This document shows positions 3,044 through 3,710 of a DNA stretch of 64,000 nucleotides, in pieces. Source of the DNA: Escherichia coli. GTDB lineage: Bacteria > Pseudomonadota > Gammaproteobacteria > Enterobacterales > Enterobacteriaceae. Location of the stretch: the NCBI RefSeq assembly GCF_017348835.2, contig NZ_CP071375.1. The stretch is one strand, 5' to 3'. The notes below the pieces were generated by a model. It did no database searches. It was given only the letters and a program-made list of their open reading frames with translations, and was not told the origin of the DNA. A program made the translations under genes and the position numbers. Every line of letters begins with the position of its first letter. Within the stretch, counting starts at the first letter, position 1.

Positions 3044-3710
3044 AATAAAGAAAACCTTTTAACGCCAAAACAAAAAAGTATTTCGTCGCGTAGTGTAAGC
3101 GATCACTTATTATATTTCCACAAAATTTAATCTATTTACAGTCCTGCGCGAGATTATTTCAGCTGTTATTTTCTGAAACTCTCAGAATAATTTCAAGATT
3201 ATATATTAGCCATTTTGATGAGTAATTTAGGTTATTGGTGAACAGAGTGGCGCTCTCTGCTCGCTCATTCCGCAAGCCTGACAAAACCGAAGTGAATAAA
3301 AATGCAATATAACAGAATAAAAGAAAATACCCCTCACTGGTGCTTTCTGCTGTTAATGTACATTTTCTGGCATAAAAAATGCTGTAAATGACCCGGTCAC
3401 GACATACACCGAATTCTCTACGCTTATAGCGTTACCTCCCCCCCAAACTTTCATTAGTGAAATTAAAGGCAATGTCATATCTAATTGATTTAATTGAAAA
3501 TAAATCATATCGGCATGTAAAAATCCACAATGTACAAAAAACGAGCCGTTACGGAATATTTTATCTACAAAAACTGACTAAATAAAAATTTTTCACTAAT
3601 TGATTAGTCATAGCCAGCGATATACGCTATGCGAAAATGCAGATGGCAATGAGATCCACTGCTTTCATCTCCATTAACATCCCATTACGCTTTTATTAAG
3701 GAGCATTAGC

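Follow-up and report, generated by a model that had tools for sequence, protein, structure and literature searches.

The AT-rich spacer between stpA and alaE of Escherichia coli as a probable shared, bipartite control region

The stpA and alaE genes of Escherichia coli point away from each other across a long stretch of non-coding DNA. It was studied here within a window of 64,000 nucleotides, i.e. the whole stretch of DNA that was analysed (contig NZ_CP071375.1 of assembly GCF_017348835.2), and all positions are counted from the first letter of that window. The locus is composed as follows:

2639..3043, minus strand: stpA coding sequence, flanking the gap; the translation of the ORF equals the annotated StpA
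3044..3710, no strand: the whole stpA-alaE divergent spacer, 667 bp, GC content 0.348
3711..4159, plus strand: alaE coding sequence (start codon at 3711), frameshifted by a 1-nt deletion after 3913

The counterpart of this gap in K-12 measures 668 bp, and the RefSeq record of that strain carries no annotation between the two genes. The spacer is 96.9% identical to that of K-12, gene order is the same, all conserved blocks described below are present and the sequence occurs in a single copy per genome. In the PGAP gene table of strain PE164, with which this chromosomal window shares 100% identity over the query, the spacer ranks first in length among the 55 gaps in the window (median 83 bp), followed by the 355 bp that separate proV and nrdF, upstream of proV. 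An initial annotation made from the letters of the window had called the gap long for this genome, and its length of 667 bp is exact. The alaE gene of this strain reads as two overlapping ORFs and has the PGAP flag 'frameshifted'; the position of the deletion was derived from the alignment with K-12, and the allele is unique among 5416 genomes. It is a probable pseudogene, which would be under the alaE-side regulation discussed below.

With a GC content of 0.348 versus 0.525 for the whole window, the gap is among the most AT-rich in the window. It contains 22 A/T homopolymer runs of at least 4, compared with 10.1 ± 2.9 in 1000 composition-matched shuffles, none of which reached 22, and with a maximum of 21 among 667-bp tiles taken every 100 bp along the window. 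The AT-richness and the long A/T tracts that had been noticed by eye are thus genuine, the runs being twice as frequent as the composition predicts. In a wedge model the predicted curvature of the gap ranked first among 1263 window tiles, and 24% of its positions exceeded the window's 95th percentile. The parameters of this model followed Bolshoy 1991 and were subjected to a qualitative check only (28 degrees per turn for phased A6 versus 0.9 for unphased). Peaks were predicted at 3120-3146, 3208-3231, 3355-3399 and 3529-3578, the last of which falls in the alaE upstream block described below. Compared with composition-matched shuffles the excess of curvature was small (z about 1.6-1.7). Coherent helical phasing of AA/TT near 10.5 bp was absent from the gap, which showed isolated peaks at 9.75 and 10.75 bp and none at 10-10.5 bp. 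Because the curvature is just about 1.6 standard deviations above that of shuffles of the same composition, the 'curvature' of the gap mostly follows from its A/T-richness.

The high-affinity H-NS nucleation motif tCGATAAATT was matched in the gap only with 2 mismatches, and its window-wide count was not above chance. In a genomic SELEX study in vitro, the spacer was recovered as an H-NS site and as a 'constitutive promoter' site of the RpoD holoenzyme (PMC3946193). The proposal that this is curved, AT-rich DNA of the type bound by H-NS and StpA is supported in part: the gap is AT-rich, A-tract-rich and predicted to be curved and it carries the SELEX mark (PMC3946193), but a high-affinity nucleation motif was not found in it. 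Promoters on both strands, at about 3456-3520, were also predicted in the RpoD study (PMC3946193). If these predictions were real, alaE would have a leader about 220 nt long, or there would be an upstream divergent transcript. A few substitutions relative to K-12 change hexamers predicted in that study, GTGATA to GTGAAA and TTTAAT to TTCAAT.

The conservation of the spacer was examined by scanning one genome per species with AlaE, which returned 80 loci. The length and the composition of the spacer are conserved family-wide: stpA lies divergently upstream of alaE in 58 Enterobacteriaceae species loci, where the spacer measures 475-789 bp and has a GC content of 0.31-0.43. Conservation of the sequence is confined to the two flanks, a stpA-proximal one from 3044 to about 3125 (about 86 bp) and an alaE-proximal one from 3474 to 3710 (about 240 bp), so that essentially no conserved blocks lie beyond those associated with the flanking promoters. 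Between them lies a third part:

3130..3473, no strand: fast-evolving AT-rich centre of about 340 bp, devoid of family-wide sequence conservation

Indels in this centre are numerous across the family, its identity to the window ranges from 0.13 to 0.5, and a family alignment is not possible. Within Escherichia the centre is collinear and 62% of its columns are variable. The two gaps next to it reach 23-24%, third codon positions 29-34%, the stpA-proximal block 15% and the alaE promoter core 12-17%. Two islands inside the centre, 3371-3386 and 3411-3423, are invariant in Escherichia only, and the genus-level invariant islands of the centre span 13-23 bp. This anatomy of conservation is the contribution of the present analysis. 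A mobile-element or foreign origin of the centre was rejected, as it is absent from real plasmids and phages and occurs once per genome: three 'plasmid' matches were chromosomes of 4.8-4.9 Mb filed as plasmids, and the sole phage match covered 94 nt at the end of an unannotated record of 1.7 kb.

On the stpA side, the following elements could be assigned, partly by alignment with Salmonella:

3044..3126, minus strand: stpA 5' leader of about 83 nt with a putative start near 3126, family-conserved; position transferred from Salmonella by alignment
3056..3065, minus strand: predicted SdsR pairing site GCGUUAAAAG, -22 to -13, overlapping the Shine-Dalgarno sequence in the stpA translation initiation region; aligned from Salmonella
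3092..3120, minus strand: hexamer pair TGGAAA-17 bp-TACACT within the stpA leader, family-conserved
3133..3161, minus strand: putative stpA core promoter with the hexamer TAAATA (3138..3133) as its -10 and a weak -35 at about 3161..3156

The leader is placed by reference to Salmonella, where the stpA reporter begins at the mapped start site -83 and has a leader of 83 nt (PMC5137417). In the same organism the small RNA SdsR pairs with the stpA leader, and structure probing revealed protection of -22 to -13 (PMC5137417). The sequence GCGTTAAAAGGTTTT at the stpA ribosome-binding site is strongly conserved. The putative -10 hexamer is situated 7 nt upstream of the presumed start at 3126, and a CTGTA motif is common to Salmonella at the matching distance. 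The pattern TgGa.At...TA...T of the hexamer pair within the leader is conserved in 60 aligned sequences; this pair may mark a second promoter in a proximal position, or a site that acts at the protein or RNA level. Transcription of stpA is silenced by H-NS and is Lrp-dependent in minimal medium (PMC4668568).

The alaE side has the larger of the two conserved flanks, which appears to comprise an upstream block, a core promoter and a leader:

3474..3599, plus strand: alaE upstream regulatory block, likely the Lrp binding region, conserved in 81 sequences
3478-3496, plus strand: conserved element tAAc...tTGaT of the upstream block
3515-3542, plus strand: conserved element A...AaAAt..c..a..g...aaaAAac of the upstream block
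3552-3573, plus strand: conserved element caGAG.AtTTTaT.gAcaAAA of the upstream block, Lrp-consensus-like
3579-3591, plus strand: conserved A/T element tAAATAAAAATtt of the upstream block
3600..3628, plus strand: putative alaE core promoter based on conservation, -35 TTGATT at 3600-3605, 17-bp spacer, -10 TACGCT at 3623-3628
3635..3710, plus strand: putative alaE 5' leader, about 75 nt long and including the Shine-Dalgarno sequence AAGGAG at 3698-3703

The block is kept in all 81 sequences with its core at 3550-3633. These sequences include 21 species whose alaE has no stpA next to it upstream, which argues that the block belongs to alaE. The conserved stretch upstream of the presumed alaE start is about 160 bp long in the 81 sequences and reaches beyond the core promoter. 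The TTG at 3600-3602 and T1, A2 and T6 of the -10 hexamer are at least 90% conserved in these sequences, and conservation collapses after 3633. We infer for alaE a weak sigma-70 promoter from which transcription would start at about 3635-3640. The Lrp consensus YAGHAWATTWTDCTR gave three weak matches in the gap with 3 mismatches each (3183-3197, 3566-3580 and 3615-3629); window-wide it was found 81 times compared with 67.8 ± 9.2 expected, i.e. not above chance. The family consensus CAGAGTATTTTATCG at 3552-3566 fits the Lrp consensus at 12 of 15 positions. In the work of Ihara from 2017, 240 nt upstream of alaE were reportedly enough for induction and 180 nt insufficient, with an Lrp footprint from -161 to -83. 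If counted from the start codon, these numbers would translate to 3471, 3531 and 3550-3628 and coincide with the conserved block and its core.

The behaviour of Lrp at this locus has been described in detail. In minimal medium a strong Lrp ChIP peak is present in the stpA-alaE spacer and a second strong peak in ygaP, and in the presence of Leu/Ile/Val just one of the two remains (PMC10127797). The alaE gene is slightly repressed and then strongly activated; leucine alters its output, and the behaviour of PalaE-lacZ belongs to the same body of evidence (PMC10127797). Removal of the partner site in ygaP, which lies more than 1 kb away, reduces the Lrp-mediated activation of stpA more than 5-fold, and atomic force microscopy (AFM) revealed that Lrp bridges stpA-alaE DNA and that leucine abolishes the bridging (PMC10127797). 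According to the passage of PMC6801825 that cites Ihara 2017, Lrp activates alaE when L-alanine or L-leucine is present and the induction of alaE is lost without Lrp. Complex regulation, which had been suspected from the size and composition of the gap, is therefore borne out by the published Lrp peaks and bridging (PMC10127797), by the Lrp control of alaE (PMC6801825) and by the pairing of SdsR (PMC5137417). Lrp occupancy, bridging and regulation, the in vitro binding of H-NS and RNA polymerase and the pairing of SdsR were all already known from publications.

Taken together, the gap is best explained as a control region shared by the divergent stpA and alaE genes, bipartite in structure and without a gene of its own, a reading to which we assign a probability of about 0.85. 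The stpA-proximal module of about 120 bp would consist of a weak promoter and the 83-nt leader, whose translation initiation region would pair with SdsR. The alaE-proximal module of about 240 bp would contain a weak, activator-dependent sigma-70 promoter TTGATT-17-TACGCT, which is preceded by about 130 bp with conserved A/T-rich sites where Lrp may assemble and followed by a leader of about 75 nt that lacks a detectable conserved structure. The modules would be held apart by about 340 bp of fast-evolving, A-tract-rich and presumably bendable DNA, of which the length and the composition are kept and the sequence is not. In minimal medium, Lrp bound to the spacer would form a bridge to the Lrp site in ygaP, by which stpA is activated and alaE slightly repressed. 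Leucine or alanine would dissolve this bridge while Lrp stays on the alaE side, leading to the strong activation of alaE. H-NS, together with StpA, would bind the AT-rich DNA and silence stpA and probably also spurious internal promoters, and SdsR would add a post-transcriptional repression of stpA. The exact start sites and hexamers in this scheme, and a role of the centre as a protein platform, are what we infer. The central DNA probably acts, if at all, via its length, flexibility and affinity for proteins and not via its sequence.

The best surviving alternative, which we consider doubtful and yet worth serious attention, concerns the centre of the gap. The central 340 bp could be functionless, i.e. 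a neutral filler that owes its AT-richness to mutation bias and lack of selection. The lack of family-wide sequence conservation and the many indels would agree with this, as would a variability within Escherichia that surpasses that of third codon positions and neighbouring gaps. The absence from the gap of an H-NS motif with at most 1 mismatch, unlike at the proU sites in the window, and the small excess of curvature over composition-matched shuffles point in the same direction. However, in spite of the turnover of its sequence, the spacer keeps a length of at least 475 bp in all 58 species. Bacterial genomes show a deletion bias. If this bias applies here, such a minimum length would be unexpected for a filler. 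The genus-level invariant islands of 13-23 bp and the twofold excess of A/T runs over the compositional expectation also argue against it.

On a further reading, the hypervariable centre would not be neutral and would carry regulatory inputs specific for Escherichia. The two islands at 3371-3386 and 3411-3423 may represent such inputs, and the first overlaps with a motif that resembles a sigma-54 promoter and that would normally be occluded by H-NS/StpA:

3368..3383, plus strand: sigma-54-like -24/-12 motif TGGCATAAAAAATGCT, GG-N10-GC with exact spacing, probably not functional

If this were true, alaE or stpA would be governed by a cryptic distal promoter, or by a factor not yet known, in conditions yet unsampled, which we regard as quite improbable.

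The initial annotation had also raised the possibility of an unannotated small RNA. A small RNA or another independent transcript from the middle of the spacer is very improbable. In its favour, the small RNA Ssr49 was predicted computationally on the stpA strand of the equivalent gap stpA-SF2698 of Shigella flexneri (PMC4782007), the RpoD holoenzyme binds the spacer in vitro with hexamers predicted on both strands at about 3456-3520, and 100 nt of the minus strand (3290-3389) fold at z = -3.0. However, the entry of Ssr49 is without the 'Yes' mark for RT-PCR validation in the table (PMC4782007), and the fold is the single best of 54 tests in a sliding 100-nt scan of both strands (z +0.7 to -3.0) and comes from the portion of the gap with the lowest conservation. 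A permissive Rfam search of 2500-4300 (E up to 10) yielded noise alone, 15-20 bits compared with thresholds of 35-100, and no match was obtained at the gathering threshold in 19 related loci, while in the full window MicA (84 bits), naRNA4 and five tRNAs were found as positive controls. A scan of the gap detected no intrinsic terminator, and promoter-like sites occurred at the rate of shuffles. The Term-seq tables of Adams et al. 2021 were complete for LB at OD 0.4 and 2.0 and M63 glucose, plus Rho regions, and contain neither a 3' end nor a Rho region between K-12 positions 2798400 and 2799299, an interval that includes the whole K-12 gap (2798496-2799163), in these three conditions (PMC7815308). 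With Rfam, the terminator scan, Term-seq and the fold z-scores all negative, no conserved fold and an empty K-12 annotation in the middle of the gap, the small RNA was rejected.

A small protein gene in the gap was rejected as well, since none of the eight ORFs of at least 25 aa that overlap it is preserved among the Escherichia relatives, in line with the earlier remark that there is no ORF of note. Stop codons break up seven of these eight in K-12 or in other species of the genus. The remaining one, which has a TTG start and encodes 25 aa (3600-3677), begins in the putative alaE -35 hexamer, and in four other species its stop is lost and its length changed.

The alaE leader might be a cis-regulatory RNA, such as an alanine riboswitch, an attenuator or a thermosensor. 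The induction of alaE by alanine and a possible small hairpin, in which GGAGC of the Shine-Dalgarno region would pair with GUUCU just past the start codon, are compatible with this. However, the leader is poorly conserved in sequence except for the Shine-Dalgarno sequence, it folds at z = -1.2, and a search for compensatory changes in 25 species found them in 0 of 10 predicted pairs with a covariation term of -0.38 kcal/mol. A terminator, a premature Term-seq 3' end and a conserved leader peptide were equally not detected, and the induction is lost without Lrp, according to that passage of PMC6801825. The riboswitch or attenuator was rejected and can be given almost no weight.

Equally little weight is due to a distal sigma-54 promoter at 3368-3383, which together with an unknown enhancer-binding protein would give alaE a long transcript whose leader measures about 320 nt. 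In its favour, the spacing of TGGCATAAAAAATGCT is exactly that of -24/-12 elements, the motif overlaps with the genus-conserved island 3371-3386, and the other three of the 4 window matches to the pattern (0.88 expected by chance) are the known norV, hycA and hypA promoters. However, one leftover match is what chance would provide, and E. albertii and two other Escherichia species do not keep the essential GG. The sites that Bonocora et al. tabulate from sigma-54 ChIP-seq comprise norV, hydN, hycA, hypA and one inside the ygaP gene (window 2240-2256) and none in the stpA-alaE spacer, and these authors argue that sigma-54 occupies its sites in all conditions (PMC4591121). In the RpoN genomic SELEX, stpA and alaE are not mentioned (PMC8743547). 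The motif is good in itself but finds no support in ChIP-seq, SELEX or conservation.

The shared control region that we favour is a textbook-style example of regulation by nucleoid-associated proteins (Lrp, H-NS/StpA) and a small RNA (SdsR), and it has been dissected experimentally already. The reading in terms of H-NS and complex regulation is correct but had been published, and the region is an ordinary, well-characterized one. What is added is a modest refinement: two compact conserved modules flank a spacer with stable length and composition and a sequence that turns over, a pattern that fits a middle part acting by its physical properties rather than by its sequence. The precise boundaries of the modules should be useful for the design of spacer swaps that address Lrp bridging.

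The closest known system is the same locus in E. coli K-12, as studied by Ziegler and Freddolino (mBio 2023), by Kroner et al. (2019) and by Ihara et al. (2017). The published Lrp peaks, the bridging and the induction by alanine and leucine should apply directly to the locus in the window, the difference being that alaE carries a private frameshift here. With MicA, which is encoded between gshA and luxS in the window, the gap shares just the setting, a non-coding gap between protein genes; MicA is annotated and conserved, unlike anything in the stpA-alaE gap, where an Rfam match, a terminator, a 3' end and a conserved fold are all lacking. The resemblance to the H-NS-silenced upstream and downstream regulatory elements of proU (proV), also in the window, is closer. 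Both are AT-rich, rich in A-tracts, predicted to be curved and a target of H-NS in vitro, and the adjacent stpA gene is repressed by H-NS. Unlike the spacer, however, proU has near-consensus H-NS sites with at most 1 mismatch, TCGATATATT at 9430-9439 and TCGATACATT at 9322-9331. Finally, the spacer can be compared with ilvIH, dadAX and oppA, the promoters of which bind Lrp cooperatively at multiple sites. It shares with these an extended upstream region, A/T-rich over more than 100 bp, together with a weak core promoter, an outcome that is modulated by leucine and paired Lrp peaks that suggest DNA bridging. It differs from them in that the partner site lies more than 1 kb off, inside the ygaP ORF, and in that one Lrp-bound spacer serves two divergent genes that respond in opposite ways.

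The centre of the spacer between stpA and alaE (3130-3473) was found to be highly variable when seven Escherichia genomes were compared, with 62% of its columns differing. The rate is about twice that seen at third codon positions and exceeds that of the adjoining intergenic regions by a factor of about 2.6. Inside this variable centre, islands of 13-23 bp are invariant, within the genus Escherichia only.

In Escherichia coli QL57EC, a swine isolate (locus L085), IS1X2 has taken the place of the half of the spacer next to alaE, together with the segment encoding the N-terminus of AlaE; stpA and about 340 stpA-proximal bp are unbroken. 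In Citrobacter amalonaticus (locus L011), the only species with this arrangement, a GC-rich insertion of ~130 bp, probably a repetitive extragenic element, splits the alaE leader, separating the promoter from the Shine-Dalgarno sequence.

Insertions at the spacer and the alaE leader
L085 3487-4254: IS1X2 replacement, equivalent to ~3385-3900 of the window
L011 ~2850-2985: C. amalonaticus insertion, within the last ~150 bp before alaE

The alaE gene of the window (3711-4159) is itself frameshifted by the loss of one C after 3913, which turns ATGCGCGCGGC into ATGCGGCGGC, and PGAP labels alaE a pseudogene in strain PE164, which is identical to the window. A 61-nt query spanning the deletion was matched exactly by only one of 5416 complete E. 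coli genomes. The deletion is therefore either private to this strain or an artefact of the assembly.

The spacer was also matched by three PLSDB 'plasmid' records (NZ_OL790696.1, NZ_CP141089.1 and NZ_CP134663.1), which, at 4.8-4.9 Mb, are evidently misfiled chromosomes. The 'phage' record OR845717.1 (1726 bp) carries 94 nt of the chromosomal spacer at its end.

Elsewhere in the window, Rfam reported a match to naRNA4, a REP-derived nucleoid-associated RNA, at 12681-12758 (+) in the gap between proX and an MFS transporter gene. Between hycI and ascB (~46949-48593), this strain has a hypothetical gene and a HigB-family toxin/HTH antitoxin pair. In K-12, hycI and ascB adjoin each other, which would make this segment a strain-variable insertion.

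A simple sigma-54 pattern, scanned over the window, recovered the known norV, hycA and hypA promoters.

Sigma-54 pattern matches
36834-36849 (+): norV promoter
56535-56550 (-): hycA promoter
56664-56679 (+): hypA promoter

The ygaP ORF, which is reported to carry the Lrp peak that acts as partner in stpA regulation (PMC10127797), also contains a published antisense sigma-54 site of the intragenic kind, IA21, at 2240-2256 (-) (PMC4591121).

The gap upstream of proV (9008-9362) is the second longest in the window. Two near-consensus H-NS nucleation motifs, one in this gap and one in proV, were used as an internal contrast for the stpA-alaE spacer.

H-NS nucleation motifs near proV
9322-9331 (-): TCGATACATT, at the proV end of the gap
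9430-9439 (-): TCGATATATT, just inside proV
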